DNA of 64,000 bases from Gemmatimonadales bacterium (GTDB lineage Bacteria; Gemmatimonadota; Gemmatimonadetes; Gemmatimonadales; GWC2-71-9): NCBI GenBank assembly GCA_038321865.1, contig JBBQFH010000003.1:32001-96000 (forward strand). The letters run 5' to 3'. The stretch's first letter is position 1. Each line of letters begins with the position of its first letter. Both the position numbers and the translations under genes were made by a program. The notes below the pieces were generated by a model that was given only the letters and a program-made list of their open reading frames with translations, was not told the origin of the DNA and ran no database searches. This document shows, piece by piece, positions 17,068 to 33,205 of this stretch.

Positions 17068-17469
17068 ATGCGAGTAGCTGACCTGATGACCCGTGACGTG
17101 ATCGGGATCGACCGCGACGCGACCGTCGCCGAAGCGATCGGCCGGCTGGCCGACGAGCACGTCGGCGCCATCGCCGTCGTCACCGGACGCAACCGGCTGG
17201 TCGGCGTCATCTCGACTGCCGACGTGCTCCGCGCCGAGGCGGACACGACCGACACCGACGCGCGCGACATCCTGTTCGAGCAGACGCGCGTGGCCGAGCT
17301 GATGACCGCACGGGCGCTGACGATCGCGCCCGGGGTCGAGGCGCGGGAGGCGGCGCGCCAGATGCTCTACGCCGACGTCCACCGCCTGTTCGTGGAGGAC
17401 GCCGGGGAGCTGGTCGGCGTCATCTCCCAGTCCGACCTCGTCCGCGCGCTGGCACTGGGCAAGGTCTAG
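17068..17469 (+). CDS. CBS-domain pair protein
   Basis: MRVADLMT, LVGVISxxD twice; GGAGG RBS. Confidence 0.9.
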   Translation: MRVADLMTRDVIGIDRDATVAEAIGRLADEHVGAIAVVTGRNRLVGVISTADVLRAEADTTDTDARDILFEQTRVAELMTARALTIAPGVEAREAARQMLYADVHRLFVEDAGELVGVISQSDLVRALALGKV

Positions 17470-17852
17470 CGCCGCCGGATCCGCCAGGGAGGGTCGTATG
17501 ATCGCGGCTCTGCATCAGGCACTCGTTGGGCTGGCCGTCGTCGCCGCCCCCGCGTGACCGGCACCATCGGACGCGACATCGTGATCGTTCGCGGCCATCT
17601 CGAACTACGCAGGGGTTCTGCTTGGCGTCGCCGCGCTCGTCACGCGCGCCTGGCTCCGCCGGCGCGCGCCAGTGGAGCCCGCGCCCGTCGAGCCGGTCCC
17701 GGCGATGGCGTCGCACGATCGGAGGGGTGAAGAAGATCTCACGCGTACTTCACCCTCTCGTCATGGGCAGCGTGACATCATTGGGACGCAGCACGATCAG
17801 GCCGGGCATGCCCGCATCATAGAAGGGCCGCTCAGGCGGCAAAGGAGGGTGC

Positions 17853-18419
17853 ATGCGCACAATGTCATTTGCGGCAGCACTACTCGCGATCGGGGCGACG
17901 ACGCTTCCCGCGCAGTCACCGAGGACGCTCGAGCTCCGGCCGATGGCCGGTGCCACCATTCCGACCGGCGCGCAGCGCGACCTGTTCAAGGATGCGCCGC
18001 TGATCGGATTCGGCGTGGCCATGCAGGTCCATCCCAATCTCCATCTCGTCGGCAGCTTCGGCTGGATGCGGGAGCACACCAGGTACGCCGTCACCCAGAA
18101 TGACGCCAACCGCTATCAGTATGACGCCGGTGTGGAGCTGAGCCTCGAGCGGCCCCTGGGCGCCGCGTGGACGGTCCGCCCGTTCTTCGGCCTGGGCGCG
18201 GGCGCGCGCACGTACAATTTCCAGGCGCAGACGCTCGCCACCCGGACGTGTGCCGCCGGCTACGGCGCGCTCGGCAGCGAGTTCCGCCTTGGTGCGACGG
18301 CGCTCCGGCTGGAGGCGCGTGACAACGTCTTCTGCTACAAGTCTCCGATCATCGGCCAGGACTCGCACACCCGCAACGACCTCACATTTTCGTTTGGGGC
18401 GGCGTATCACCTCTGGTAG
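17853..18419 (+). CDS. Outer-membrane beta-barrel protein
   Basis: Signal peptide, PFFGLGAG, RLEARD, aromatic C-terminus. Confidence 0.75.
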   Translation: MRTMSFAAALLAIGATTLPAQSPRTLELRPMAGATIPTGAQRDLFKDAPLIGFGVAMQVHPNLHLVGSFGWMREHTRYAVTQNDANRYQYDAGVELSLERPLGAAWTVRPFFGLGAGARTYNFQAQTLATRTCAAGYGALGSEFRLGATALRLEARDNVFCYKSPIIGQDSHTRNDLTFSFGAAYHLW

Positions 18420-18527
18420 TTCGACCCGGGGCTGGCGTCGCGACTCAGGTCCGCGGCGCCGGCCCACGGTGGCGGCACACATGGCGGCTGCCGAACGAAT
18501 GAATGACCTGTGAAAGTCTGAGGCGTT

Positions 18528-19199
18528 ATGCGAAACGACAGCATGCTCCGCAGCGACCTTCTCGATGAGCTGAAGTGGGATCCCAGCATCCGGAACGAGG
18601 ATATCGCGATCGCGGTCAAGGATGGCGTCGTGACGCTGGCCGGTACGGTCGACACGTTCATGCAGCGCTATGCGGCCCAGCGAGCCGTCGAGCGCGTGAA
18701 TGGTGTGGCCGGGATCGCCAACGATCTCGCCGTGAAGCTTCCGGGGGCGATGGAGCGCTCCGACTCGGATATCGCGCATGCGGCGGTGAACGCGCTGCGC
18801 TGGGACGTGCAGGTCCCGGACGAGCATGTGAAGGTGAAGGTGACCCAGGGCTGGCTCACGCTCGAGGGCCAGGTCAACTTCTTCTTCCAGAAGGACGCTG
18901 CGGAGCGCGCGGTGCGTTCGCTGGCCGGAGTCAAGTCCGTCAGCAACCTGATCGCCCTGCGCCCGATCGTGACCCCGGCGGACGTGAAGACGCGGATCAC
19001 GAGCGCGTTCGGGCGCCAGGCCAAGCTGGACGCGAGCGAGATCACCGTCGAGACGATCGGATCGAGAGTGATGTTGCACGGGAGCGTACGCTCCCACGCC
19101 GAGCGGTGTGATGCCGAGCGGGCCGCGTGGAATGCACCCGGCGTCATGGTGGTCGAGAACGAGCTGTACGTCAGGTCGCTCGTCCCCGCTCTGCTCTGA
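18528..19199 (+). CDS. Triple BON domain protein (OsmY-like)
   Basis: ELKWDP, GVVTLAG, GWLTLEG, AWNAPGV repeats. Confidence 0.9.
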   Translation: MRNDSMLRSDLLDELKWDPSIRNEDIAIAVKDGVVTLAGTVDTFMQRYAAQRAVERVNGVAGIANDLAVKLPGAMERSDSDIAHAAVNALRWDVQVPDEHVKVKVTQGWLTLEGQVNFFFQKDAAERAVRSLAGVKSVSNLIALRPIVTPADVKTRITSAFGRQAKLDASEITVETIGSRVMLHGSVRSHAERCDAERAAWNAPGVMVVENELYVRSLVPALL

Positions 19200-19214
19200 G
19201 CGGCGGTTGATCTA

Positions 19215-19249
19215 CCGACGCGCCGGGCGCACGTTGCCCGGCGCGTCGG
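19215..19249. terminator. Hairpin between the BON gene and intI
   Basis: CCGACGCGCCGGGC / GCCCGGCGCGTCGG 14-bp stem. Confidence 0.55.
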
Positions 19250-19340
19250 CACGTCCGTCACCTCGATCACGCGCGGGTGTTCCGCGCCGCCGGGCGCCGA
19301 TTTGGTGGGTGCAGTGGGTATGTGTGGTGCAACGTGCGCG

Positions 19341-20336
19341 ATGGCCGATGATCCGGGGTCCGTGCTGCCGGGCCCCTCGCGCCCGCGGCTGGTGGTGCAG
19401 ATCCGCCAGGCGATCCGGGTGCGGCATTACAGCCGGCGGACCGAGGAGGCGTACGTCGCGTGGGTGCGGCGGTACGTGCGCTTTCACGGGATGCGGCATC
19501 CCGCCGAGCTCGACGCGGGCGACGTCGCCCGTTTTCTGACCAACCTGGCTGATCGGGGCCGGGTGAGCGCATCCACCCAGAACCAGGCGCTGAGCGCGCT
19601 GCTCTTCCTCTATAGAGATGTGCTCGGCCGCGATTTTGGGTGGCTCACGACGGTGGTGCGGGCCAAGCGGCCCAAGCGGCTGCCGACGGTGCTCACCCGG
19701 GAGGAGGTGGCGGAGACGCTGCGCCGGCTGCCGGGGACGCGGCGGCTGATGGGCGAGCTGCTGTACGGCAGCGGGCTCCGGCTGCTGGAATGCATGCAGC
19801 TCCGGGTGAAGGACGCCGACTTCGGCGGCCGGCAGCTGATGGTGCGGGGCGGGAAGGGCGGGCGGGACCGGGTGACCCTGCTGCCGGGGGTGGTAGCGGG
19901 GCCGTTGCGCGCGCATCTGGAGGGGGTGGCCGCCCAGCATGCGCGTGATCTGGCGAGCGGGGCGGGGCGGGCGCCGCTGCCGGAGGCGCTGGAGCGGAAG
20001 TATCCCGGCGCGGGGCTCGAGTGGGGCTGGCAGTACGTCTTCCCGGCGACCCGCCTCCGCTGGGACCGGCTTCGGAAGGAATGGACGCGGCACCACCTGC
20101 ACGAGTCGGTGCTCCAGCGGGCGGTGTATCAGGCGGCGCGCGAGGCCGGCATCGCCAAGCGGGTGAGCTGCCACAGCTTCCGCCACAGCTTCGCGACTCA
20201 TCTGCTGGAGGACGGGTACGACATCCGGACGGTGCAGGAGCTGTTGGGCCACAAGGATGTGAGCACCGCGATGATCTACACGCACGTGCTGAACCGGGGG
20301 CCGAAGGCGGTGCAGAGCCCGGTGGACCGGCTGTGA
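19341..20336 (+). CDS. intI: Integron integrase
   Basis: N-terminal [10 protein letters not shown] and SASTQNQAL; catalytic R (GSGLR), K (GKG), HxxR (HSFRH), H (LGH), Y (IYTH); integron-specific insertion [19 protein letters not shown]. Confidence 0.97.
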
Positions 20337-20430
20337 CGGCGTCTCGGCGCGATCGCGTCGGGTCCGAGGGAGGTGGCGAGGCTCCTGACGCGGGCATCGA
20401 GGGATCTCGGACGGGTGGCGTGCCTGCTCA

Positions 20431-20514
20431 ATCCGGTTGCGGCGTGTCTCTCGCCGGTTGCGACGTGTCGCTCGCCGGTTGCGACGTTCCTCTCGCCGCC
20501 GGCGAGGCTTCTGT
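20431..20514. repeat. Degenerate 21-bp tandem repeat
   Basis: CGCCGGTTGCGACGTGTCGCT-like units at 20431, 20452, 20473, 20494. Confidence 0.7.
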
Positions 20515-20765
20515 GTGACGCCGCGTCCGGCCTGCGGGTGGTGAGGCGGGTGCTGGCGTGGGTGGCGGGGTTGCTGGCGGGCCGGGTCCGGTCATTCGCG
20601 GATGCCGCGGGGCTCCTGCTTTTGCCTGCGCGGTGTCTCTGTGTCCGATGGTGCCGCCTGACGCTTCCGGCGGCGACCCTCGCGGGTCCGGGCTGACGCC
20701 TGTCGGCTCGCGCGGCACTCGGGGCGGCTGGTGATCACTCGCGCCGGGCCGAGAAAGATTTTGAG

Positions 20766-20912
20766 CGGCTGAAGCGGGTCGCGCGCGCCCTCGGGCTGGC
20801 GGCGCTCGCCCTGATGCAGGACGCGCTCACCCTGATGCCGGCAGTGGGCGCCCTGATGCCGGCAGTGCGTGCGCTGATACCGGCGGTGCTCGCCCTGAAA
20901 GCGGCATGGGGC
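20766..20912. repeat. Degenerate 21-bp tandem repeat (about 7 units)
   Basis: GCCCTGATGCCGGCAGTGCGT-like units at 20808, 20829, 20850, 20871, 20892 plus two weaker upstream units. Confidence 0.8.
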
Positions 20913-21209
20913 GGTCTACGGTGTCCGATATGCCGGCTGAGGGATGGTGAGGCGTCTGGGGGCGAAGTGGGGCGCTCGCTCGCGGCGCCGACAAGCGGCG
21001 CCGACAAGCGGGGGGGGGGCCCGGTGGCGGCCTCCTCCTGCGGGCGGTATGCTGGTATGAGCTGCGCGGTCCCGCGCGCCGAGCAAAGCCGCGGCGGCGG
21101 CAGTCTATTTCCCGCTGCCTATTCCCGCCGGATTGCAACGCAGGGCCCGTGGCGGACTTTCGCCGGCATGTCGGCCCTGGTCCGGGTCTGAACCGGCGTT
21201 GGGGGCGCG

Positions 21210-21248
21210 GTATTGTCTTTCTAATGGGCTGTCTAGTTCGCATTAGGC
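21210..21248 (+). other. Candidate attI site
   Basis: ATTAGGC at 21242-21248 opens cassette 1 with no attC upstream; preceded by inverse-core-like GTCTAGT and TTCTAAT. Confidence 0.7.
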
Positions 21249-21267
21249 GGCAACTAGGAGGTCGTGT

Positions 21268-22134
21268 ATGCGGAGTCTTTCGTTCCTGATCGCGTTCACC
21301 CTCGGCCTCGGCGTGCCCGGCACCATCAGTGCGCAGAAGCACTGTGCCGCCCGTGATGCCAATGGTGTGGTCCGCGGTCAGGTGCTCGACGAACTTGCGC
21401 GGCAGCCGGTCGAGAATGCGCTGGTGACCGTTCCGGCGTTGCCTGGATGCGCGGTTGTCACGGACGCGCGCGGTCGATTTGGATTTCCGCGCCTAGCCGT
21501 CGGTCCGACGCGGCTGCACGTGGCCTTCGTCGGCTTGCACACTCCCGACCACACGATCAGCGTTGCCGCCGGCGTGCCAGCAGATGTCACCATCCTGCTT
21601 CAAGGCTTCCGGGAGCCCGACATCGCCACTCTGGACCGCTTACCCCCGGCGGAACAGATGAGCATGCTGCAGGCGGTGATCGCCTACTACCGTCAGCCAG
21701 ACCGCGATGGTGAGGTTGCGGCGGTTCGCGAAACCGAACGTGTGACCGGAAGCAGGCCCACGCCTGCACTGGCTCAGCCGGGGTTGCTGTTGTATGTGGA
21801 TTCCGAGACCGTGACAGCGATCGATTCGGCCGCATTGCGCGCAACCGGCACGCAGGTATGCCGGCCACCACAGCTCGCCGGGTGCCCAGGCAATGGCGCG
21901 GTTACGTTTCTCCGCCTGTGGGGACCGCGCCGGACCACCGTAGACACCGCGTTCTATCGAGTTGATGACTTGGTGGCCGATCCTGCCGCTTGCCGCCGCG
22001 GGAACGGCTTCGTGGGCTCATCGCGCAGCGTCGCTATTGTAGCGCGTGGCAGTGACGGCTGGAAGGTCGTCGAATCCCGTCCGAGCTTGAGTGCATCCGG
22101 TAGCTGCGGCCCGCGCCGGCGCGCGGCGCGCTAG
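21268..22134 (+). CDS. Cassette 1: secreted protein with carboxypeptidase-regulatory-like domain
   Basis: AGGAGG RBS, signal peptide, VRGQVLD..PVENALV..TDARGRF. Confidence 0.8.
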   Translation: MRSLSFLIAFTLGLGVPGTISAQKHCAARDANGVVRGQVLDELARQPVENALVTVPALPGCAVVTDARGRFGFPRLAVGPTRLHVAFVGLHTPDHTISVAAGVPADVTILLQGFREPDIATLDRLPPAEQMSMLQAVIAYYRQPDRDGEVAAVRETERVTGSRPTPALAQPGLLLYVDSETVTAIDSAALRATGTQVCRPPQLAGCPGNGAVTFLRLWGPRRTTVDTAFYRVDDLVADPAACRRGNGFVGSSRSVAIVARGSDGWKVVESRPSLSASGSCGPRRRAAR

Positions 22135-22136
22135 CC

Positions 22137-22235
22137 GCCTAATCACTGCATGCAGCCGACAAAGCGGCCGGGTTTTCTCTCTGCATGCCCGAAGTACCTG
22201 ATGGCCGCTTTGCAGCTGATGCGAAGGCATTAGGC
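22137..22235 (+). repeat. attC 1 (AAT type)
   Basis: GCCTAAT-CACTG-CATGCAGC...GCTGATG-CGAAGGC-ATTAGGC; AAAGCGGCC arm variant. Confidence 0.9.
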
Positions 22236-22624
22236 CGCTCCAGCGGTCCAGCAAGAACTGGTCGTGGGTTCCTTGATCGGCGCCGCTCCGATGCCGGAGC
22301 GGCAGCCCGGGTGCCCGCCCCCGCAGGTCGCGACGCTAGTCGCTGCGGAAGCGTTGCATTCGCTCAGCGGGCGCCCGCACCTGGCGCGCTGGCGGCGCGG
22401 GCCCAAAGCCATCGGCGCGTCGAGGCAGAACGATCGTGGCACCGCCAGCACGGCGATCTGGTTGGGCGCGCCGCGTCCCTCGATCCAGTGACATTCCGGT
22501 GCTGCGCCCGGCGGCCCCGGTTGGGAGCGTCGGCGCCCATCGTGTGACAGCGGCGCACGGTGCGCCGCGGAACAGCTGGTCTGCGTCGGGCGGCCGAGTG
22601 TGCCGGGTCCATCGAGGGCTAGCG

Positions 22625-22720
22625 TCCTAATTACTGCATGCAGCAGACAGGGCCACCCGAGTTCATGCCATTAGCATAGAATTGATTAGTGGCCCTGCAG
22701 CTGATGCGAGGGCATTAGAC
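22625..22720 (+). repeat. attC 2
   Basis: TCCTAAT...ATTAGAC. Confidence 0.9.
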
Positions 22721-22805
22721 AGGCACGACTTCGGAGGGTCCAATCGAGGAACTTGTTCAGCGTGAGAACTTCACGGCCCGCGATCCGGCAGTTGAAGCCC
22801 GTGTC

Positions 22806-23429
22806 ATGCGCGCGGTCATCGCGCTAATTGTCGTTCCGACCGCCGCGTTCTGCGTCGCGATCTACATGGACTGGAGCCTGCGCGGTCAGGCGTTCTGGCG
22901 GGGGCTGTTCCTCTCCGTCGGCATGAGCCTCTTCTTCAGCGTCGGCCTAACGGCGCTTGCCTTTTTGGTAACGGCGCCTTCCACGCTACGGCGATTGCGA
23001 CAACGATTGGATATGATCTTCGCGAACGACCCGCGGGTTGTGCCGCTGGCTCCGCGTGACGCCACACACCGGCTGGTTTGCGCATGGGTACTCCCGCGCC
23101 GGCGCTTCTATGGCGGGAGCCTCTATGTCTGCGCGACAAGGCTGCGGTTCCAAGGCCACTATCCCGTTGCCCCTTGGTGGCGCCGCGCCCATGAAGAGAC
23201 CCTGGCCCTCGACCTGGGGCCGCTGCGATCCATTGTCATCGAGTGTGGGACGTTGTCGCGAACTTGGTGGGAGCGTTGGTTGGCGGTACCCGCACTTATG
23301 GCAATGGTTCTCAGGTCAGAGGACATCGAACTGATACTACGCTGCGCAGCTGTCGAGGAGGCGGCTCGCGGCCTCGAGGCCTGCCTTGACCGGCTTCGGC
23401 ACGAGGGCACAATGGCCCCGCCTGTCTAA
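22806..23429 (+). CDS. Cassette 3: membrane protein of unknown function
   Basis: Two N-terminal hydrophobic segments; stop codon TAA lies inside the attC R'' box. Confidence 0.75.
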   Translation: MRAVIALIVVPTAAFCVAIYMDWSLRGQAFWRGLFLSVGMSLFFSVGLTALAFLVTAPSTLRRLRQRLDMIFANDPRVVPLAPRDATHRLVCAWVLPRRRFYGGSLYVCATRLRFQGHYPVAPWWRRAHEETLALDLGPLRSIVIECGTLSRTWWERWLAVPALMAMVLRSEDIELILRCAAVEEAARGLEACLDRLRHEGTMAPPV

Positions 23430-23520
23430 TCACTGCATGCAGCAGACAGGGCCACGAGAGTTCAAACCATTCTTAGGCATATGATTAGTGAGCCCTGCAG
23501 CTGATGCGAGGGCATTAGAC
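23424..23520 (+). repeat. attC 3
   Basis: GTCTAAT...ATTAGAC. Confidence 0.92.
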
Positions 23521-23537
23521 CGCCACGGAGATCATGT

Positions 23538-24020
23538 ATGCTTCGCTGGATCGGAGCCCTCGTCCTGCTTCTGGGCACCAGTCGGGCACTGCCCGCGCAG
23601 ACCCCGGCGGCGCCACGTCCGAAGGGCGTTCCGGCGCCCACCGCCATCGCGGGACGTCCGGTATGGGACACCAGCTTCGTGCGCGTGCTCAACGCGCCTG
23701 AGCTGCTCGCGGAAGGCGCGGCCGGGCGCCCCCAGCTCCGGGTCCGCGTCACCGGAGTGCTCGGCGCGTGGGCCGAGCTCGACTGCGACTGCCTCCTGAC
23801 CACGCTCTATATCGCGGTGAGCGATGGCGCCGAAGACGAGGCGACGCTGCGTGCCTTCCGGCTCCCGGGGCTGCTGGATCCCAAGATCGACAGCTTGGTG
23901 ACGGAGGCGGACGTGCCCGTGCTCTACGTCAGCTATGGTCTCGCTTCGCAGCGGCGGATCGCGCGGCTGGCGGTCAGCCTTCAGGGGGTGCGCAGCACCG
24001 GAGCGCGAGCCCGTCAGTGA
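23538..24020 (+). CDS. Cassette 4: secreted hypothetical protein
   Basis: GGAG RBS, signal peptide, fills the cassette. Confidence 0.8.
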   Translation: MLRWIGALVLLLGTSRALPAQTPAAPRPKGVPAPTAIAGRPVWDTSFVRVLNAPELLAEGAAGRPQLRVRVTGVLGAWAELDCDCLLTTLYIAVSDGAEDEATLRAFRLPGLLDPKIDSLVTEADVPVLYVSYGLASQRRIARLAVSLQGVRSTGARARQ

Positions 24021-24026
24021 GTCGCG

Positions 24027-24122
24027 GTCTAATCACTGCATGCAGCAGACAGGGCCACCGAGCTACTCCGCATGTGCTGAGATATTGATAGTGGCCCTGC
24101 AGCTGATGCGAATGCATTAGAC
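24027..24122 (+). repeat. attC 4
   Basis: GTCTAAT...ATTAGAC. Confidence 0.92.
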
Positions 24123-24148
24123 CGCAACAACGCTCAGCCGGAGAACCG

Positions 24149-24418
24149 ATGATCTCCCAGTGTTCGCAGTGCAGCGGTGCGCTTGTTCGAGGCGATCTAC
24201 GGTCAGGCGTGCTCAGCTTCGGCGACTTCTTCGTTGAGCACGCAGGCGATGAGCGGACATTCATGGGTGCGCCGAAGCCCCGCCCCGGCGTCCAGCGTGA
24301 CAATCGCGTTATCTCATTTGCGTGCACGCAGTGCGGACTTGTGACGAGCTACTTGGAGCGTGCGCTCGCGCCGGGCTCGGACGGCTCCCAGGGGATTTCC
24401 GGACCGCCTGCGGTCTAA
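24149..24418 (+). CDS. Cassette 5: small zinc-ribbon-like protein
   Basis: CSQC...CTQCG; stop codon inside R''. Confidence 0.75.
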   Translation: MISQCSQCSGALVRGDLRSGVLSFGDFFVEHAGDERTFMGAPKPRPGVQRDNRVISFACTQCGLVTSYLERALAPGSDGSQGISGPPAV

Positions 24419-24508
24419 TCACTGCATGCAGCAGACAGCGCCACCGGGCTACTCCGCATGTGTTGAAATATGATAAGTGGCCCTGCAGCTGATGCGAGGG
24501 CATTAGAC
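24413..24508 (+). repeat. attC 5
   Basis: GTCTAAT...ATTAGAC. Confidence 0.92.
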
Positions 24509-24526
24509 AGCCAAGGAGGTTGCGAT

Positions 24527-24961
24527 ATGGCAGATCCATTTGCAGGCGTGAACCTTCCCAGTTTCTCCGTGCCGGAAATCCGCATGCCTAGTTACGGCGC
24601 GGTGTCGGCTGCGCAGATGGAGGAGATCTCGCGCAGCTTGGCCGAGGCCGCGGACGCGAAATCCGCCCGAGGCCTAGTCAAACGCCTCATGGCTGAGGTC
24701 CGCGAGTTTGAGGAGAGACTCGACGAAAGTCACGAGGTTGGCGTGAGGCTCGTCTCGTTCGGTCAGAGTTTGGTATTCCATGTTCACCAGATCGGCTATA
24801 TCCAACCCAACCTGGTCACTTTCGCTGGGACTACTGACGATTCTCAGCCAGTGCGTCTCGTGCAGCATATGAGTCAACTGAGCTTCCTACTCATGCGTGT
24901 TCCGCGGCTCAACCCGGAGCAGCCGCGTCGCCCTATCGGCTTTAGGGAAAGTTCAGAGTAG
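24527..24961 (+). CDS. Cassette 6: DUF6173-like protein
   Basis: AAGGAGG RBS; EVGVRLVSFG, IGYIQP, LVQHMSQLSFLL, PIGF pattern recognised from memory. Confidence 0.75.
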   Translation: MADPFAGVNLPSFSVPEIRMPSYGAVSAAQMEEISRSLAEAADAKSARGLVKRLMAEVREFEERLDESHEVGVRLVSFGQSLVFHVHQIGYIQPNLVTFAGTTDDSQPVRLVQHMSQLSFLLMRVPRLNPEQPRRPIGFRESSE

Positions 24962-24966
24962 CGGCT

Positions 24967-25063
24967 GTCTAATCACTGCATGCAGCAGACAGGGCCACGA
25001 GAGTTCAAGCCATTCTTAGGCATATGATTAGTGGGCCCTGCAGCTGATGCGAGGGCATTAGGC
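24967..25063 (+). repeat. attC 6
   Basis: GTCTAAT...ATTAGGC. Confidence 0.92.
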
Positions 25064-25085
25064 AGTTACACGAACTTGAGGCTCC

Positions 25086-25478
25086 ATGCGACCAAGGATT
25101 GTTGGCAGCCATGACGGCGAACCAGTCTCGCCTGGGCTCCGCCCGCTGCTCAACGACGCCTACGACGAGATTGTTCGGCAGCCATCGAACCTTGGAGCGC
25201 TCAAAGGTGCACTCGATCGCATGCTAGCCTTCCTCTGCTCGGCTCAAGGCAGGACTGCCGCGAACTGCATAGAGGTCGATCGTTTCTTCTTCGCGCACAT
25301 GCTGGACGGCGTGACCTGGGAGCATTTGCCCGAGTCGTACACGGACGTGATGGGCGACATAGGTGGCCAACTCCATAACACGTTTGCCGCACCAGAAATG
25401 GCGGAGAACTTCGACGGCACACCGGAGCAGCTCCTTGAACAGGTGCGCGCGTTGAAGATCGATCCGGGTACTGCCTAA
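25086..25478 (+). CDS. Cassette 7: hypothetical protein
   Basis: Fills the cassette; stop codon inside R''. Confidence 0.8.
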   Translation: MRPRIVGSHDGEPVSPGLRPLLNDAYDEIVRQPSNLGALKGALDRMLAFLCSAQGRTAANCIEVDRFFFAHMLDGVTWEHLPESYTDVMGDIGGQLHNTFAAPEMAENFDGTPEQLLEQVRALKIDPGTA

Positions 25479-25570
25479 TCACTGCATGCAGCAGACGAAG
25501 CGGCCGGGCCTTGATGTGTGTCCCTTGAGAATCATTTGGCCGCTTCGCAGCTGATGCGAATGCATTAGGC
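25473..25570 (+). repeat. attC 7
   Basis: GCCTAAT...ATTAGGC; GAAGCGGCC arm variant like attC 1. Confidence 0.9.
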
Positions 25571-25601
25571 GGCTCCGAACACCTGGGCCGCGCGCCGCGG
25601 G

Positions 25602-25949
25602 CTACTCATGGCGATGAATCAGCGCTCCGATCAGCGCACCACTGCCGGTGCCAACGACAACGAGGCCTACAGCGCGGCCCCAGCCAGGGCAGTCGGCGTT
25701 TGCGTCTGAATCGCACTGCGTAAGGCTGACAATTGCGAGTGCGGTTCCTGCGACAGCCCCAATGATGAGGCCGCGCTTCCACTGATTCGGCTGGTATGGC
25801 GCCGGCGCACGAACTGAGGCGGCGGTATGCGCGACGGACCATGAAACGATAACGGGGTTCGTGCGTGGGCCTTGGGCGATGGCGGCGGTCGCGAGACAGA
25901 GGCTAGCCAGAGCGCCCCCGACAGTGGTGAGTGCATGGCGCGCTCGCAT
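25602..25949 (-). CDS. Cassette 8: reverse-oriented small secreted/membrane protein
   Basis: GGAG RBS on the minus strand, signal peptide, GxxxG-rich helices (GLIIGAVAG, GALIGALI). Confidence 0.7.
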   Translation of the reverse strand: MRARHALTTVGGALASLCLATAAIAQGPRTNPVIVSWSVAHTAASVRAPAPYQPNQWKRGLIIGAVAGTALAIVSLTQCDSDANADCPGWGRAVGLVVVGTGSGALIGALIHRHE

Positions 25950-26100
25950 TCGGGAACTCCGTGCGGAGGGATTGTCCAGCCTAACGCGATCAGTGTCAGG
26001 AAATCATGAGGTGCACGTGAGAGGCCCGGACTCTGTTCCGCGCGCTCGCGCACTCACTCAAGAACAGAATGAAGGGGAGCCGGCGGTTGTTGGGACAGCC

Positions 26101-26197
26101 GCCTAATCACTGCATGCAGCAGACAGGGCCACCGGCGCCCTCAGCAGTCTTTCGGCATTTGAATGGAGGCCCTGCAGCTGATGCGAGGGCATTAGGC
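26101..26197 (+). repeat. attC 8
   Basis: GCCTAAT...ATTAGGC. Confidence 0.9.
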
Positions 26198-26232
26198 GGC
26201 TGCACAGCCCGTCGTTAAAACCACGAGGTTCC

Positions 26233-26919
26233 ATGCGCCGAACCGCACTCGTGCTTACGCTAGTCTTCATCGGCACCCGACACGCCCAGTCGCAAACGAT
26301 CGGAGCCGTTTGTACGGCGGTGGATCGGCACGCGCTCGTGCGAACAATGACGGTACCCCACTTCCGGGACTATCAGCCCCAGTTAATCGCAGCGCTGACG
26401 GGGCGCGAAGCGAGCGAGCCGTCGCAAAATCAGGTGACCGCGCTTTGGGCGGCCGACTCGGTGAGCGTGCTTTGGAGTCTGTCGGCGATTGTCGCGCACC
26501 CGGAGCAGGTAGGCTCGGAAACGGCTCGCGCGGCCGCCATGATGTACAAGGCACATCATGGCCCGGCCGCCATCATGCTCGTCGGGCAACTCGAGGGTCA
26601 GGTGGCTAGTGAGGTCGCGGTGCCTGACGCCTTGGAGGCCGTGACGCCGCCGCTGCAGCCTCTGGAGGAGGAAGCGGTGTTTGCGCTGACGTGTGATGCA
26701 GTGTGGTTACTGAACGCGTTGGCGCAGGATACGGCCTACAGGGTGCCAAGGCAGCCGACATCGCGCATCCGTTGGGCCGGCCTTGCGGCGGCCACATTAC
26801 GTGAGGGTGCGCGTCTCATAAGAGGCGGTCGCCGACCGATCTTGCTTGGGTGGATCGCCGACCTCAAGGCGCGTGGTGTGCTAACAGACCAGCATAGCGA
26901 GTTCGACGTCGCCCACTAG
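26233..26919 (+). CDS. Cassette 9: secreted hypothetical protein
   Basis: GAGG RBS, signal peptide, fills the cassette. Confidence 0.75.
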   Translation: MRRTALVLTLVFIGTRHAQSQTIGAVCTAVDRHALVRTMTVPHFRDYQPQLIAALTGREASEPSQNQVTALWAADSVSVLWSLSAIVAHPEQVGSETARAAAMMYKAHHGPAAIMLVGQLEGQVASEVAVPDALEAVTPPLQPLEEEAVFALTCDAVWLLNALAQDTAYRVPRQPTSRIRWAGLAAATLREGARLIRGGRRPILLGWIADLKARGVLTDQHSEFDVAH

Positions 26920-26934
26920 AATCACGCGAGCCCC

Positions 26935-27031
26935 GCCTAATCACTGCATGCAGCAGACAGGGCCACCGAGCCACTCCGCATGCCTTGAAATATGATGAGT
27001 GGGCCCTGCAGCTGATGCGAATGCATTAGGC
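26935..27031 (+). repeat. attC 9
   Basis: GCCTAAT...ATTAGGC. Confidence 0.92.
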
Positions 27032-27054
27032 AGCAACCATTCACGGAAGGCTTC

Positions 27055-27504
27055 ATGATGACCGCCGCGATTCACGCGATCGGCTCCCCACCAAAACGGG
27101 ATCGCACGGCTTCCGTCCTGCAAACGGCGCGCGTCGCGTTGGCCGTCGCAGGCGCCGCGGCGCTGTACCGCGTTGCCGTCGCGGTTCTGTCGACTCTCGT
27201 TGATGGACCGTCGAAGGTTCGATTTCTCCTTTTTTATGGCACAATCGCGCTGGTCGCAGTCGCGCTGCGGTGGGGCGTTGATCGGCGCGCGAGCGTTGCT
27301 CGCTGGGCCTGCGTGGTCGCCGGGCTCCCAATGGTGGCCGCCCTCATTCGTGGTCGCGGAGCGTTTGCCACCTTTTGGCACTACTTCCCGGTGCCAGTCG
27401 CCGACGTACTCCTTTTCCTCGTGTGGCCGCTGATGATCATCGGCTTCGTTGTGGCGGGAGCTTGTTGTGCGCTAGCGCAATCGGACTCCGCACGCTGGCG
27501 GTAA
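27055..27504 (+). CDS. Cassette 10: four-helix membrane protein
   Basis: Four hydrophobic segments; fills the cassette. Confidence 0.7.
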   Translation: MMTAAIHAIGSPPKRDRTASVLQTARVALAVAGAAALYRVAVAVLSTLVDGPSKVRFLLFYGTIALVAVALRWGVDRRASVARWACVVAGLPMVAALIRGRGAFATFWHYFPVPVADVLLFLVWPLMIIGFVVAGACCALAQSDSARWR

Positions 27505-27526
27505 CCCCAGCTGTTGTGGCGCGGCC

Positions 27527-27622
27527 GCCTAATCACTGCATGCAGCAGACAGGGCCACCGAAGCCCTCAGCATTAGCGTAGAATTGATTAGTGGCCCTGC
27601 AGCTGATGCGAATGCATTAGGC
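27527..27622 (+). repeat. attC 10
   Basis: GCCTAAT...ATTAGGC. Confidence 0.92.
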
Positions 27623-27639
27623 TGCTTCAAGGACCGCCA

Positions 27640-28122
27640 ATGACTCAAGCTGCACGTCGTGTTCTATCGGATTGCGAAGCAGCGCTCACTGACTTCCGCG
27701 GCTCGACGGGCCTGGAGTGGCGCACACGGTGGGTTTCGGTCATCACCCTGCTACGGGCAGTCGGTCACGTCCTAAAAAAGATTGATAGTCATGCCAGCCC
27801 GGCAGCTGCAGCGGCGATTGACGCAGCTCACGGTCGTCTCTGTGCATCGAGGCCGGAGCCGAAGATCTTCTGGGAATTTATCGAGCAAGAGCGAAACAAT
27901 CTGCTCAAAGAGTATGAGTTTGGCGCCCAGCAGAGTGTGACGGTACGGCCGGGTGGCGTTTGGATCAACATGAAAACAGGCGAGTCTGGCGCAAATCCAG
28001 CAGGGCTGACGAGCTACTCCCAACTTATGCGCGCTGGCCCCTTTGCAGGACAAGACCCATGCGATGTGGCGGCGCAGGCGATCGCATGGTGGAGATCGTA
28101 TTTGGACAGCGTCACATTGTAG
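27640..28122 (+). CDS. Cassette 11: hypothetical cytoplasmic protein
   Basis: AAGGA RBS, fills the cassette, lower GC. Confidence 0.8.
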   Translation: MTQAARRVLSDCEAALTDFRGSTGLEWRTRWVSVITLLRAVGHVLKKIDSHASPAAAAAIDAAHGRLCASRPEPKIFWEFIEQERNNLLKEYEFGAQQSVTVRPGGVWINMKTGESGANPAGLTSYSQLMRAGPFAGQDPCDVAAQAIAWWRSYLDSVTL

Positions 28123-28136
28123 CACCCGTGGCAGCA

Positions 28137-28232
28137 GCCTAATCACTGCATGCAGCAGACAGGGCCACCGGCCTACTCCGCCTGTCTTGGGATATGATTA
28201 GTGGCCCTGCAGCTGATGCGAGGGCATTAGGC
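28137..28232 (+). repeat. attC 11
   Basis: GCCTAAT...ATTAGGC. Confidence 0.92.
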
Positions 28233-28344
28233 CACCACCGGTAAGCCTCACGCGTTTGTTATGATTTGCTCATCTTGCCGTCAGCGGCCGGTCAACCGAC
28301 CAGCGTAATGTTTAAGGGACAGATCCCTCGACTGGAGGTCCCTA

Positions 28345-28851
28345 ATGCGCGCCGCTTCCTCCCTCACTGCCCTGACGCTCCTGTGGTCATTCGGGGTTAT
28401 CTGGCGCTTGACCCCCGATGGCCTGGTGAATCTGAGTTCAGCCACCGCACCTATGTCGGGATTTGTTTGTCCGGAGGGACCGCCGCCACCGCCACCACCT
28501 CCGCCCATTCCAGACCCCGTCCCGCTGGCGGTGGCCGTGCTGCAGCGGGCGAGCGAGGTCATCGTCCCTAACGACGGCGACGCGCCTGAGACGCTGGCCT
28601 GGCAAATGATCGAGGCGGATGCCCGGGCTGACAGCATCTGGATTGAGCTAGGCGGGGCGCAGTCGCCGGCGGCGCGGATCTACGCGTTGCGCGGGCTGGT
28701 CTGGACGGATCCGGTGCGGTCGGCGCGCTTGGCGCAGGAGCTTCGGCAGCAGCCGGACGTTGTCACGATCCGCCGCGGAGATGTCGTGCAAGTCCTGCCG
28801 ATGGCCCGGGCCGTCGAGCGCGCAGGGAATCCCGAGTGGCCGCACCGCTGA
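28345..28851 (+). CDS. Cassette 12: proline-rich exported protein
   Basis: GGAGG RBS, N-terminal hydrophobic segment, poly-Pro tract. Confidence 0.7.
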   Translation: MRAASSLTALTLLWSFGVIWRLTPDGLVNLSSATAPMSGFVCPEGPPPPPPPPPIPDPVPLAVAVLQRASEVIVPNDGDAPETLAWQMIEADARADSIWIELGGAQSPAARIYALRGLVWTDPVRSARLAQELRQQPDVVTIRRGDVVQVLPMARAVERAGNPEWPHR

Positions 28852-28887
28852 CGAGGTCGCTGTAAACCGCCGCTTCGTGCGCCGGTA

Positions 28888-28984
28888 GCCTAATCACTGC
28901 ATGCAGCAGACAGGGCCACCCGGCTACTCCGCATGTCTTGGGATATGATTAGTGGGCCCTGCAGCTGATGCGAATGCATTAGGC
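28888..28984 (+). repeat. attC 12
   Basis: GCCTAAT...ATTAGGC. Confidence 0.92.
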
Positions 28985-29019
28985 CGCAACTGAGCTCCGT
29001 AGACCGCAACCAACTTCTC

Positions 29020-30534
29020 TTGGTATTCGTGCACCAGCCGATCGAGAAAGCCGAGCCGACCACGTCGTCCGAGGCGTTATTGGCGCGACTCGCGACCGGC
29101 GCCTTCCTGACACCCTGGAGCTACCCCCGTGTGCACCGGAACCAGCCTGCCCAGAGCGGAGCGGTCATTGGCAAGGAGCTTTGTGACCTTCTTGTCGTCT
29201 TCGGCAAACATGTCATCATCTTCTCAGACAAGGCGTGCGCGATCGGTCGCTCCAGCGACCTGCAGAAGGACTGGTCTCGGTGGTATCGGCGGGCAGTACA
29301 AGCCTCTGTGCGGCAGGTCCTAGGCGCAGAGCGCTGGCTGCGAGAGCATCCGGACCGGCTATTTCTGGATCCACGGTGCACGACGCCGTTCCCATACGCC
29401 CTGCCGCCTGCTAGTGAAGCGGTCTACCACCGTATCGTCGTCGCGCGCGGCGCAAGCGTGCGCTGCACTCGCGAACTCGGCGGTTCCGGGAGCATGATGG
29501 TGCAAAGCCACGTCACAGGCGAGCCAGATGCTACTCCCCCGCCTTTCACGGTTGGTAATCCCAGCCCGCAGCATGGGGTGATCCACGTACTCGACGATAG
29601 CACGCTGACGTACATCTTCGAGGCACTGGATACGATCGTGGACTTCACTGACTACCTCGACCGGAAAGAGCGGCTGTTCACTTCGGAGGTTGAAGTCTGG
29701 TCAGCAGGCGAGGAGGAGCTTCTAGCTCACTACCTCAAGAACGTGGGATCTGACGGTCACCACGATTTCGTAATCCCACCTGACACGAACGCAGTGGCGT
29801 TCGAGGAAGGAATCTGGGAGGACTTCCAGCGCAATCCCCAACGCATCGCTCAGCTCGAGGCAAACCGGATTAGCTATGCTTGGGATCGGCTCATCGAGGT
29901 GTTTAGTGAGCACGCCTTCGCCGGAACTTCCCAGTTTATATCTCACCCAGGCTTCGGCACTCACGAGCAGTTGCTCCGAGTGCTAGCGAGCGAGGGTCGA
30001 ACGCAACGCCGAGGACTCGCGGAAGCACTCTTCGGCATTCTCAGGGACACTCCCTCCCATTTGCGCGGGACGCGGGTGGTGATACCAGAGCGTCCGGACC
30101 TCCCGTACTATGTGTTCTTGCTGTTGCCGTGGAGGGATGACAAGCCTGACGAAGTGAATCGCCTAGTCAGGCGCAACTTCCTCGAGGCATGCTGCCTGAC
30201 CGTCAAGCTGATACGTCCCGAGGCGCAGACCGTCGTTGGACTTGCGACGGAGAGCGGTCGGACGAATGGAGGATCCGAGGACCTCCTGCTCCTCGACGCG
30301 CGCAAATGGACCCCGGAATTAGAAGCAGAGGCGCGAGAGCTACGCAGTAGGCTGCACCTATTTCCGGAAGTTACACTGCGACCGTATCATCTTAGAGAGT
30401 ATCCTGAGGTCAGTGATGACAAGCCACGCCGGCATGGAACCCGACCGCCAAATAGACCCGCCGGAGGGCCGAGCCGGAACGGCCCCTGCCCGTGCGGCAG
30501 CGGGAAGCGCTTCAAACAGTGCCACGGCAAATAG
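29020..30534 (+). CDS. Cassette 13: NERD/PD-(D/E)xK-like protein with C-terminal SEC-C motif
   Basis: ELCDLLVVFGKHVIIFSDK and later A..Q motif; RNGPCPCGSGKRFKQCHG; start codon uncertain (TTG or GTG). Confidence 0.8.
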   Translation: MVFVHQPIEKAEPTTSSEALLARLATGAFLTPWSYPRVHRNQPAQSGAVIGKELCDLLVVFGKHVIIFSDKACAIGRSSDLQKDWSRWYRRAVQASVRQVLGAERWLREHPDRLFLDPRCTTPFPYALPPASEAVYHRIVVARGASVRCTRELGGSGSMMVQSHVTGEPDATPPPFTVGNPSPQHGVIHVLDDSTLTYIFEALDTIVDFTDYLDRKERLFTSEVEVWSAGEEELLAHYLKNVGSDGHHDFVIPPDTNAVAFEEGIWEDFQRNPQRIAQLEANRISYAWDRLIEVFSEHAFAGTSQFISHPGFGTHEQLLRVLASEGRTQRRGLAEALFGILRDTPSHLRGTRVVIPERPDLPYYVFLLLPWRDDKPDEVNRLVRRNFLEACCLTVKLIRPEAQTVVGLATESGRTNGGSEDLLLLDARKWTPELEAEARELRSRLHLFPEVTLRPYHLREYPEVSDDKPRRHGTRPPNRPAGGPSRNGPCPCGSGKRFKQCHGK

Positions 30535-30551
30535 GTCCAGTTATGCTTGCG

Positions 30552-30647
30552 GCCTAATCACTGCATGCAGCTGACAAGGGCACCAGGCCACGAGGCATTG
30601 GCGAACATATTGTAGGTGCCCTTGCAGCTGATGCGAGGGCATTAGAC
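30552..30647 (+). repeat. attC 13
   Basis: GCCTAAT...ATTAGAC; AAGGGCACC/GGTGCCCTT arm variant. Confidence 0.9.
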
Positions 30648-30700
30648 GTCTGCCGAGTTTGGCAGTAGCTTTCCAAAGCCCTTCTTCCCTGGAACCCTCT

Positions 30701-30907
30701 ATGGTTATCACGATCGAACTGGAGCGCGAGACGGACGGCCGCTGGATCGCCGAGGTCCCGAGCCTGGCCGGGGTGGTGACCTACGGGGCCACACGCGACG
30801 AGGCCGTGGCCCGGGTCCAAGCCCTGGCGCTCCGGGTCTTCGCCGATCGCCTCGAGCACAGCGAAACCGCCCCCGAACTGCTGGATCTGCACTTCCAAGC
30901 CGCGTGA
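30701..30907 (+). CDS. hicB: HicB-family antitoxin
   Basis: IELERETDGRWIAEVPSLAGVVTYGATRDEA. Confidence 0.85.
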   Translation: MVITIELERETDGRWIAEVPSLAGVVTYGATRDEAVARVQALALRVFADRLEHSETAPELLDLHFQAA

Positions 30908-30945
30908 GCGACTGGCCGGCCACCAAGGCACGGCGGTCGAGCTAG
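30904..30945 (+). pseudogene. 5' remnant of a HicA-family toxin
   Basis: GTGA overlap with the hicB stop; reads MSDWPATKARR then stops, resembling N-termini of HicA partners of this short HicB type (from memory). Confidence 0.6.
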
Positions 30946-30959
30946 GTGAGGGCGCGCGG

Positions 30960-31244
30960 CTAGTAGTGGTAGCGGGCTTGGAGGAATTCGATGCGGTCCG
31001 CGAACACCTCGTACACCAAGCGGTCCGCTTCGTTGATACGTCGCGACCAGACGTTGCCGCCAAGGTGTTTCAAGTGCTCGGGCTTGCCGAGGCCGGCGAA
31101 GGGTTCACGCAGCACGGCCTCCATCAGATCGAGCACGCGCAAGGCGGTCTTCCGGTTCGTGTCCACCCAGTAGTGGAGATCCTCGCGGAATTCGTCCTGG
31201 AGCGCCGCCACCCGCTTGGTCGAGGCCATGGCGGTGTCAGACAC
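30960..31244 (-). CDS. yoeB: Txe/YoeB family toxin
   Basis: DLHYW, PFAGLGKPEHLKH, WSRRINEADRLVY, ARYHY. Confidence 0.93.
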   Translation of the reverse strand: MSDTAMASTKRVAALQDEFREDLHYWVDTNRKTALRVLDLMEAVLREPFAGLGKPEHLKHLGGNVWSRRINEADRLVYEVFADRIEFLQARYHY

Positions 31245-31247
31245 CCA

Positions 31248-31535
31248 CTACGCGGGGTCCTCGAGGCCGAGCTCACGCCGCACGGCACTCAGATCCTGGG
31301 TTCGCGTCCGGCCGCGGCGGCCGCGCGTGAGGGCCGCCAGCAGCCGAGCGGCATTCTGCGGCGAGCGCAGCAAATAGGCGGTCTCGCGCAGACTGGCGAG
31401 CTCATCGGCTGGAATCAGGGCCATGTCTTCGTGGCCCCGGCGCTGGATGACAGCCACGTCGCGGCTATCCTCGACGGCGTTCCAGATGTCCGCAAGGTGT
31501 TCGCGGGCATGACTATAGCTGACTTTGATGCTCAT
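31248..31535 (-). CDS. yefM: Phd/YefM antitoxin
   Basis: SYSHAREHLA, ETAYLLRSPQNAARL; GGAGG RBS. Confidence 0.92.
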   Translation of the reverse strand: MSIKVSYSHAREHLADIWNAVEDSRDVAVIQRRGHEDMALIPADELASLRETAYLLRSPQNAARLLAALTRGRRGRTRTQDLSAVRRELGLEDPA

Positions 31536-31552
31536 GGCGCCTCCGTTTGACT

Positions 31553-31592
31553 TGTACAGAGACATTGTACAAGATAAGCGCTTTGCGGTCAA
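31553..31592 (-). promoter_or_regulatory. yefM-yoeB promoter with TGTACA operator pair
   Basis: Minus-strand TTGACC-17bp-TACAAT; TGTACA palindromes at 31553-31558 and 31566-31571. Confidence 0.8.
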
Positions 31593-31607
31593 GGTCTGGC
31601 AGCGCCT

Positions 31608-31704
31608 GCCCAATCACTGCATGCAGCAGACAGGGCCACCCGAGTTCATGCCATTAGCATAGAATTGATTAGTGGGCCCTGCAGCTGATGCGAGGGCATT
31701 AGGC
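31608..31704 (+). repeat. attC 14
   Basis: GCCCAAT...ATTAGGC; central region identical to attC 2. Confidence 0.9.
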
Positions 31705-31725
31705 CACACGAGGAGGCCTCGAAGA

Positions 31726-32214
31726 ATGCGCGTCTGGTACCCGGCGTCCCTTGCCCTGTTCATGACCGTTAGCGCATGCGGGGGCAGCTCCATCTGGCAG
31801 GGCCCGACCCCCCGCCTGAGGCAGCCCGGTCGCTCCCAGAGTGTGGTCGGTCGCTGGGCTCTGGTCTCGCTCGTGCGCAATGGGGAGGACTTGACCGACC
31901 GCATGAGGAGCGCCGGCGTTGTCAGCTACTACACGTTCGACGCTGACGGTACCTTCCGCATCATGCGGGGCGACTCCATCACGGAGACAGGCACGTGGTC
32001 AGAGGATACCACCGTGTCGCCAAAGCTCTTCGACCACATCCCGCACGTGAACGGGAAGACCGGCCCGTACGTGCCCGGCATCTTCACCATTACCGGGGAC
32101 ACTCTCACCATCTCTCTCATAGGACCGAATCCGGAGCGTCGGCACCCGACGCAATTCCGCTCGGTTCTGGCCGACAAATCGTGGCTGCTCGTATACCGCC
32201 GGACCCCGCAGTAG
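31726..32214 (+). CDS. Cassette 15: lipoprotein with lipocalin-like beta fold
   Basis: AGGAGG RBS, VSAC lipobox, VGRWALVS..YTFDADGTF..GTW. Confidence 0.75.
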   Translation: MRVWYPASLALFMTVSACGGSSIWQGPTPRLRQPGRSQSVVGRWALVSLVRNGEDLTDRMRSAGVVSYYTFDADGTFRIMRGDSITETGTWSEDTTVSPKLFDHIPHVNGKTGPYVPGIFTITGDTLTISLIGPNPERRHPTQFRSVLADKSWLLVYRRTPQ

Positions 32215-32325
32215 GGTGGCCGAACAAGCGTCCGCCTCCGCTTGAGGTGCAGACACAAGTTGTCAAGCTTGGCTCCTGATCCAGAACACGACCGTACGGC
32301 TTTCACCTCCTTCGAATGGACTAAC

Positions 32326-32640
32326 ATGAAATACATGATCAGCTGGACCGAACGCCCGCAGGGCTCGCCCATGGAGTACGAGAACGCCCAGAAGCGGATC
32401 CTCGAAGTCTTCGGCCAGTGGAAGGCGCCGGACAACTTCAGGATCGACTTCTTCGTGATCCGCGTCGGGGAGTGGGGCGGCAACATGCTGATGGAATGCG
32501 ACGATCTGGTGACGATTCACAAGTTCTGTTCGATGCTCCCTGCGTTCGTCTTCGAGGTCCATCCCGTCATCCCCGTCGACCAGGCCGTCCGTGGCGAACT
32601 CGAGGTCATCGCCTGGCGCGACGGCCTGAAAGGCAAGTGA
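32326..32640 (+). CDS. DUF3303-like protein
   Basis: MKYMISW...PAFVFEVHPVIPV pattern. Confidence 0.7.
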   Translation: MKYMISWTERPQGSPMEYENAQKRILEVFGQWKAPDNFRIDFFVIRVGEWGGNMLMECDDLVTIHKFCSMLPAFVFEVHPVIPVDQAVRGELEVIAWRDGLKGK

Positions 32641-32821
32641 CACTGGACCGCTCGCCGCGGCCGCGACGCTCCGACAGCACCATCAAGCCAATGGTCGTCG
32701 TGATGAGCATGGCGGACGCGCGCGCAGCTGCAGCCGAGGCCGGCGGTATCGTCAACGCTGAGCGTCACATCTGGCCCGGGTGCGTTGCAGACAGTATTCC
32801 CGTACCTCTGCTGGAGGCGAC

Positions 32822-33205
32822 ATGTCCCACGGCAAGATCTGCTATCTGGAAATACCGGCCACGACGGCGGAGGCATCAGCGGACTTTTACAGCTCGATTT
32901 TCGGATGGAAGGTGAGGCGACGGGCGGATGGCGCGCTGGCCTTCGACGACCCAGGCGGGGTGAGTGGGACCTGGGTGAAGGAGAGCGACCGGACACCGGA
33001 CGAACACACGCGGACGTATATCATGGTCGATGGCATTACCGACACACTCGCACGCATTCACGCTGCAGGCGGGCGAACCCTGACGCCCCGTACTGCAATC
33101 GGCCAGGGCATGGGGGCGTTTGCCATTTTCGCCGACCCCGTCGGAAACGAATTCGGGCTCTACGAGGAACCGCAGCGCCGGCCCTCCCAGGCCACCGGGC
33201 GCTGA
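32822..33205 (+). CDS. VOC/glyoxalase family protein
   Basis: ICYLEIPA, FYSSIFGW, FADPVGNEFGL. Confidence 0.9.
   Translation: MSHGKICYLEIPATTAEASADFYSSIFGWKVRRRADGALAFDDPGGVSGTWVKESDRTPDEHTRTYIMVDGITDTLARIHAAGGRTLTPRTAIGQGMGAFAIFADPVGNEFGLYEEPQRRPSQATGR

Follow-up and report, generated by a model that had tools for sequence, protein, structure and literature searches.

To our knowledge, the GTT/AAC triplet has been thought to be the sole sequence feature common to all integron sites. What, then, is to be made of an integron where that triplet reads ATT/AAT at site after site? Such an array lies in the window (the whole stretch of 64,000 nucleotides analysed here) from the genome of a Gemmatimonadales bacterium. 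The host is a sediment bacterium. Is the change to be sought in the enzyme, or in the DNA strands that it joins?

An array of AAT/ATT sites

The integrase gene, intI (19341..20336, plus strand), is intact. Its product, a 331-amino acid integron integrase, scores 434 bits against TIGR02249 (cut-off 265) and aligns to VchIntIA (2A3V) with an E value of 1.6e-83; in that alignment, the catalytic residues R147, K172, H278, R281, H304, and Y313 are all in place. The gene runs in the same direction as the cassettes and is, in this sense, an inverted integrase, as is also usual among the order-level relatives examined. About 905 bp downstream comes the attI core, A|TTAGGC (21230..21248, plus strand). 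It was placed by its pairing with the R'' of the first cassette, which extends over 10 nt of the attI start, and its crossover would fall after A21242. The cores of genomes G080 and L087 resemble it. From this layout we infer that the attI adjoining intI receives the first cassette. No sigma-70-like promoter scored above threshold between 19100 and 21400.

Fourteen complete attC sites of 96-99 nt follow on the plus strand, each found both by a site pattern and by our own attC model trained on GTT-type sites. These are attC 1 (22137..22235, 28.4 bits), attC 2 (22625..22720, 19.9 bits), attC 3 (23424..23520), attC 4 (24027..24122), attC 5 (24413..24508), attC 6 (24967..25063, 3' of a DUF6173 gene), attC 7 (25473..25570), attC 8 (26101..26197), attC 9 (26935..27031), attC 10 (27527..27622), attC 11 (28137..28232), attC 12 (28888..28984, 30.9 bits), attC 13 (30552..30647, 3' of a 501-aa gene with a SEC-C motif), and attC 14 (31608..31704). 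The R'' box reads GCCTAAT in eight sites, GTCTAAT in four, TCCTAAT in one, and GCCCAAT in one (attC 14), while every R' reads either ATTAGGC or ATTAGAC. The canonical core (R'' with AAC; R' and attI with GTT) is seen in none of them. This confirms what a preliminary description of the locus had reported: AAT/ATT at every complete attC and at attI (A at 21242), beside an intact integrase. A half-site pattern run over the host's own genome gave 18 AAT matches, against none for AAC and none for reversed-pattern controls, so the AAT sites are not a product of chance. Degenerate copies of the site are also dispersed in that genome (C3:17453, C3:18653, C37:13403, and C17).

On folding, the bottom strands form attC-type hairpins that have the R'', L'', L', and R' arms, an unpaired spacer, and two bulged, extra-helical bases. 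The first extra-helical base in an attC site is usually G. Here, the bottom strand has C at that position, with spacers of 5/7 nt. This refines the earlier view that the rest of the fold is canonical. GTT-type relatives have the same bottom-strand C and spacers of 5/7 or 5/8, which makes the C bulge and the 5/7 spacers traits of the lineage.

It had also been suggested that standard attC models would miss such sites. With its filters off, our GTT-trained model recovers all 14; with its default (speed) filters, it recovers six and loses eight. The suggestion is only partly supported: by this model, fast attC scans under-count ATT arrays. Rfam gave no match in 19000-33000 at E values up to 1.

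The source is, of course, a metagenome-assembled genome, and the sites are highly similar repeats, as would be expected of an assembly or orientation artefact or of a repeat that is not an integron at all. This explanation is largely refuted, and we give it almost no weight. Five other genome records carry the same pattern; contigs derived from the reads of DNA run X1, probably the source sample, match the junction regions with no differences at the triplets listed; and each of the 14 sites, read on the cassette strand, aligns with the GTT-trained model along its whole length.

The cassettes themselves record how they arrived. The R'' at the end of a cassette pairs with that cassette's own start over a mean of 9.2 nt, versus 6.9 nt with the start of the next. 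Pairing with the own start is longer in nine of 14 cases, shorter in one, and equal in four, an outcome reached in none of 200,000 permutations; the same junction rule holds in 16 of 17 pairs from other ATT arrays. From this pairing of each cassette end with the start of the same cassette, it follows that insertion took place at AAT/ATT sites.

Cassette 1 (21243..22229, plus strand; from gene call and junction pairing) encodes a carboxypeptidase-regulatory-like domain protein (gene 21268-22134) that has a 33% homolog in an ATT array of genome G380. Cassette 14 (30642..31698, plus strand) holds a 68-aa gene without a family match and, encoded on the minus strand, the toxin-antitoxin pair YefM-YoeB; YoeB and YefM are 94% and 91% identical to a pair in an ATT array of G380. 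Its end pairs with its own start over just 3 nt, and the cassette is therefore probably composite. PADLOC found no convincing match among 14 cassette proteins and one weak match, to SEC-C.

Cassette 15 (31699..32230, plus strand), at the distal end, differs. Its lipocalin-like gene (31726-32214) is followed, 1 nt past the stop codon, by a truncated AAC-type R'' remnant (32216-32230) that matches the complement of the cassette's own start at eight of nine bases. The AAC-AAGCG of this remnant is frequent in GTT-type sites of relatives, and the cassette looks GTT-derived. The array is thus all-ATT for its complete sites only.

Enzyme or DNA as the seat of specificity

The laboratory precedent is found in Table 4 of Frumerie et al. 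(PMC2811028). There, IntI1 recombines ATT with ATT at 1 (SD 0.64) of the wild-type frequency, while mixed ATT/GTT pairs give 3.1e-3 and 3.4e-3 of wild type, some 300-fold worse, as measured with IntI1 and one attC. The mixed pairs do poorly because the first base must match.

The preliminary description proposed instead a co-evolved recombinase specificity, where a clade of integrases changed to prefer AAT/ATT and the sites followed. In its favour, the integrases of our genome (G000), G004, G080, and L087 form one clade (SH-aLRT 97-98, 66-73% identity), and all three readable attI sites of the clade are A|TT, which implies that the ATT state is old and stable. Further, a tryptophan, W248, is common to all ATT-associated integrases.

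The contacts at the cleavage site, as they are named in PMC2811028, are nevertheless canonical. Y30, S31, T34, Y38, R113, K172, G173, H282, and H304 are each the majority residue among 95 IntI sequences, no contact substitution tracks the ATT state, and the ATT clade has no private substitution at conserved columns. W248 occurs in nine of the 95 and was rejected as a specificity residue, being present in L015, L020, and L112, whose neighbours are GTT; moreover, nine of 91 outsiders have at least one residue as rare as this in common with the ATT trio. An A|TT attI adjoins the integrases of G000, G080, and L087, but also that of G005, which groups with GTT integrases. A single clade for integrases beside A|TT attI is rejected (AU p=0.003) in what are quick trees, with a test group chosen after the tree was inspected; the attI calls in G005 and L087 come from contigs that end before the attC of the first cassette. 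And IntI1, unaltered, recombines ATT with ATT, according to the table just cited.

Co-evolved specificity is thus not supported, and we regard it as unlikely. That three of the four integrases beside an A|TT attI fall in one clade fits shared ancestry, and would also fit subtle co-adaptation. Every genome with an ATT array is a fragmented assembly, and G005 and G382 could carry an ATT-clade integrase that was not assembled.

We think it probable, therefore, that this sedentary chromosomal integron belongs to a natural, partly insulated pool of ATT cassettes, with specificity set by DNA pairing. At the crossover, the one base that the attI and attC sites swap would be A in place of the usual G. 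An ordinary IntI would bind attC as a folded bottom strand and cut it at 5'-AA|T-3'; by the docking rule in the literature, the freed T would then dock onto the partner's A. Recombination of ATT with ATT should, as a result, proceed at about the normal rate, with ATT by GTT some 300-fold rarer if the IntI1 value applies in this host. The activity of this IntI and the route by which ATT arose are likewise matters that we infer. The outcome would be a partly insulated ATT pool common to a small set of related bacteria. If specificity lies in the DNA match, any integrase whose attI turns from G to A can draw on it.

A probable cassette pool shared among relatives

The preliminary description allowed that all-ATT arrays might be the norm in this lineage. 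They are not: at least five AAT-type sites occur in one of 300 order-level relatives, against 26 for AAC. The AAT/ATT pattern recurs in other Gemmatimonadales genomes, and near-identical cassettes are common to some of them. A narrow pattern run phylum-wide over 401 genomes, which misses G080, found only G000 and G005; viral contigs gave no matches. Matches in L050, L051, L053, L066, and L068 have no attC at the match and were left out as chance.

Might the array be a frozen relic, shut out of the common pool by its ATT state and now inherited vertically and decaying? The dispersed copies of the site are degenerate, and the contigs of the one DNA run contain no excision product, the joints between attC copies having unknown middles. 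Against this stand an intact integrase, 14 well-paired sites, and a junction rule that holds at attI. The ATT arrays, moreover, differ in their cassettes and in cassette order, and hold cassettes 90-99% alike between genomes whose sites differ. We consider a relic quite improbable.

Cassettes common to ATT arrays are mostly toxin-antitoxin modules. One of these is 92-99% identical in protein among G000, G005, and G380; across 251 genomes, an AAT-type site terminates each of its three closest DNA matches (100, 96, and 82%), and the single copy with an AAC-type site is 75% identical. G000 and G005 belong to one genus. Close kinship alone could explain part of the sharing. With ATT cassettes shared between genomes, and with the 300-fold barrier in the table of PMC2811028, the partly orthogonal pool proposed earlier is plausible.

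Insulation is not absolute, as cassette 15 suggests; G005, G381, and G382 each carry both site types. In G382, two alignable, paralogous attI copies are present. The first, G|TT, lies beside the integrase and is followed by an AAC cassette; the second, A|TT, has no adjoining integrase and is followed by an AAT/ATT cassette. This pairing of each attI with a cassette of its own type also counts against co-evolved specificity. A broader proposal, whose chances we put at about even, is that nature uses at least two integron address codes, with an ATT pool insulated some 300-fold from the GTT pool and circulating in Gemmatimonadales. Entry would require a single attI change, and some hosts would retain one attI with G and another with A, allowing one integrase to serve two arrays. 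As the first base travels with the cassette, it would be a natural barcode of the place where that cassette was made.

Significance, and comparison with known systems

Frumerie et al. (PMC2811028) state that all integrons characterised so far have the same triplet, and ascribe its conservation to cassette exchange between integrons. A natural ATT system in several genomes tests that explanation directly; it shows that a cassette pool can split and allows what splits it to be measured. The ATT/GTT barcode would serve in tracing the origin and flow of cassettes and, if the reading is true, bears on the open question of their genesis. The system could also supply native ATT parts for orthogonal integron tools.

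A natural all-ATT integron was not found in our search of the literature, although one could sit unremarked in supplementary attC tables; none appears in the accessible portions of PMC9892861, PMC12901181, PMC4889954, PMC2727003, PMC8352920, PMC9668308, PMC7370490, PMC8876359, or bioRxiv 2022.09.11.507474. Nor did our search turn up the account of minority AAT-type attC sites that the preliminary description mentions.

The closest parallel is the engineered ATT attC-aadA7 and attI1 of PMC2811028, where G1 was changed to A1 on both attC arms and in attI. The enzyme has canonical contacts there, as here. Those sites are a laboratory construct; here, the change occurs in nature, spans the array, and is common to several genomes. 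In work on attG secondary sites (bioRxiv 10.1101/2022.09.11.507474), the first base is shown to be carried into target choice, with a consensus of GWT. GTT cassettes were used; ATT cassettes are predicted to have a different off-target consensus, AWT.

Among natural systems, the sedentary chromosomal integrons of the Treponema group (PMC4889954) share with this one IntI, attI, homogeneous host-typical attC, promoterless genes, toxin-antitoxin cassettes, and an integrase in cassette orientation. They have AAC/GTT where the present array has AAT/ATT. Nearer still are the GTT-type Gemmatimonadales arrays of G021, G308, G245, and G279. These have the L boxes CATGCAGC / GCTGATG of the ATT array, together with its bottom-strand C as the first extra-helical base and its long right spacer. 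They differ in their AAC/GTT cores and in length (127-140 nt; most ATT sites have 94-100 nt); over the first 28 nt, they are 72-77% alike to the G000 sites, whereas ATT arrays are 80-91% alike among themselves.

The ATT array and the use of its sites

Downstream of an intact integron integrase gene, intI (19341-20336; TIGR02249, 434 bits), an attI-like site with A at 21242 precedes 14 complete attC sites (22137-31704), all on the strand of the gene. In all 14, R'' ends in AAT and R' starts with ATT; thus, the preliminary description of attI and every complete attC as ATT type beside an intact integrase holds. When folded, the bottom strands of these sites form attC-type hairpins, each leaving two bases extra-helical. 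The first of these is C, not the usual G, as it also is in GTT-type (AAC/GTT) relatives; in the VCR attC, a C here is reported to cost merely 2.7-fold (PMC2727003).

The R'' of each cassette is expected to be complementary to that cassette's own start. Here, the perfect pairing run averages 9.2 nt with the own start versus 6.9 nt with the start of the next cassette (longer in 9 of 14 cassettes, shorter in one, tied in four), and the junction pairing total is reached in none of 200,000 permutations. The attI pairs over 10 nt with the R'' of the first cassette, and in other ATT arrays the rule is followed in 16 of 17 cases. Because each R'' pairs with its own cassette's start, the ATT sites of the window have, judging from their junctions, been used for cassette insertion. 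ATTAG is common to the sites, which leaves the exact cut position ambiguous by a few bases; the cut is placed after A (A|TT) because of homology with G|TT and because cassette 15, the distal lipocalin-like cassette, has an AAC remnant and a start preceded by A.

Between intI and attI lies a gap of 905 bp with two sets of 21-nt tandem repeats (20433-20505 and 20769-20898). Cassette 8 (25565-26191) is without a clear forward gene, its longest ORF being 115 aa on the minus strand.

Outside the window, the contig of the array carries three further intact ATT sites, and the source genome a second attI-like site without an integrase and several decayed ATT copies. Genome-wide, 18 AAT copies and no AAC copy match the half-site pattern, and there is a single intI. 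A second ATT cluster lies ~33 kb upstream of intI (contig C3, ~10310-18760; L075), starting with an attI-like core without an integrase; its first cassette fits the junction rule (10 nt), and its later sites are decayed.

Distribution, origin and detection of ATT sites

The all-ATT trait is real, rare and recurrent. Of the 300 genomes in a single order-level sample, one (G080; 7 AAT, 0 AAC) has at least five AAT-type half-sites, against 26 with at least five of AAC type (25 leaving out the unpublished G203); ATT arrays are thus not the lineage norm. The two-ended pattern is positive in 2 of 250 family genomes, not counting the source. Across 185,579 species genomes, a scan whose pattern is bound to the L-box family of the window, and whose counts cover ATT arrays of that style, returned 23 stretches. 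Genuine ATT sites come from four records of Gemmatimonadales, from a Sphingomicrobium-labelled assembly (short contigs, whose label may reflect mis-binning) and, as one lone site, from within an Isosphaeraceae GTT array; five records were discarded as chance matches. In G381, an ATT site of ~39 nt with an almost absent terminal stem sits among normal sites (L170). The main arrays of G005 are ATT, and a GTT-type cluster there adjoins a broken intI fragment (L167, contig C3).

Single AAT...GTT sites lie within GTT arrays of G279, G308, G344, G005 and G016. The Isosphaeraceae array (L067) holds one AAT...ATT site (3998-4096) with a near-identical GTT sibling (1749-1847), which reads as an independent double change. 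The half-changed sites and this pair therefore suggest that two transitions can build an ATT attC stepwise; one further transition, in attI, would then open the pool. The driver may have been drift or a selective pressure, such as one against parasitic or foreign cassettes.

Standard attC models had been suspected of missing such sites. Our own covariance model, trained on 27 GTT-only sites and distinct from that of IntegronFinder, finds all 14 once its filters are switched off (19.9-30.9 bits, the next match scoring 12.6) but only 6 at default filters, so the suspicion survives in part. In the same model, 11 G021 sites of GTT type that share the L boxes of the window reach 34-41 bits. ATT sites are penalised, not invisible, to a GTT-trained model. 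In G308 (L082), the covariance model also catches extra attC-like matches between long GTT sites (e.g. 3811-3950, 4616-4755, 5793-5931) that the motif scan missed.

An ordinary-looking integrase

The preliminary description had further proposed that the integrase co-evolved to ATT specificity. This is unlikely. In an alignment of 95 integrases referenced to VchIntIA (2A3V) and the contact list in PMC2811028, each cleavage-site residue of the window integrase is the majority residue, and no conserved column carries a substitution private to the ATT clade. W248 is common to ATT-associated integrases, but is not specific to them. By sequence, therefore, the enzyme looks ordinary.

In the tree, the integrases of G000 (the source genome), G004, G080 and L087 form one clade (SH-aLRT 97-98), with A|TT in all three readable attI. 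That of G005 clusters with two GTT integrases, yet the matching attI position is A|TT. A single clade for A|TT-attI integrases is rejected (AU p=0.003, on 34 of the 95 rows, the group having been chosen after tree inspection). G382 has two alignable attI copies in paralogous regions (L173 and L074): a G|TT copy adjoins the integrase and precedes an AAC cassette, and an A|TT copy without an integrase precedes an AAT/ATT cassette.

A probable cassette pool behind a presumed docking barrier

For IntI1, ATT x ATT recombination is reported at wild-type frequency and mixed ATT/GTT pairs at ~0.003 of wild type (PMC2811028, Table 4), because, as explained there, one base docks during strand exchange. 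The same paper describes the triplet as common to all characterised integrons and suggests that its constancy is maintained by exchange between integrons. The window locus is best read, by analogy, as a natural counterpart of this ATT case; if so, cassettes of the ATT type would be expected to move between ATT platforms.

Shared cassettes seem to bear this out. An ATT array of G380 holds YoeB/YefM 94%/91% identical to those of the window; identity among G000, G005 and G380 is 92-99% for a HigBA-like cassette, and among G000, G005 and G382 it is 81-87% for another pair. Across 251 family genomes, with 28 of 29 loci read, the HigBA-like cassette has its three closest DNA matches in copies of AAT type, and the single AAC-type copy stands at 75%. 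In a small sample of GTT arrays, none of 17 window cassette proteins was matched. With near-identical cassettes in ATT arrays and so low a mixed-pair frequency for IntI1, the partly orthogonal pool first suggested from the sequence is likely. The ATT arrays of G380, labelled Sphingomicrobium, hold cassettes 90-98% identical to those of G000 (L062, L070, L176), reflecting either cross-phylum transfer or mis-binned contigs. An incomplete AAC-type R'' remnant lies directly after the last cassette gene of the window (32216-32230), and this oldest cassette, cassette 15, looks GTT-derived, whether as an ancestral relic or as a leak across the barrier.

Searches of the open-access literature yielded no natural all-ATT integron. 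The window array is a variant of the integron with an ATT core; it departs from the canonical GTT/AAC core, but is otherwise an integron and probably works like one.
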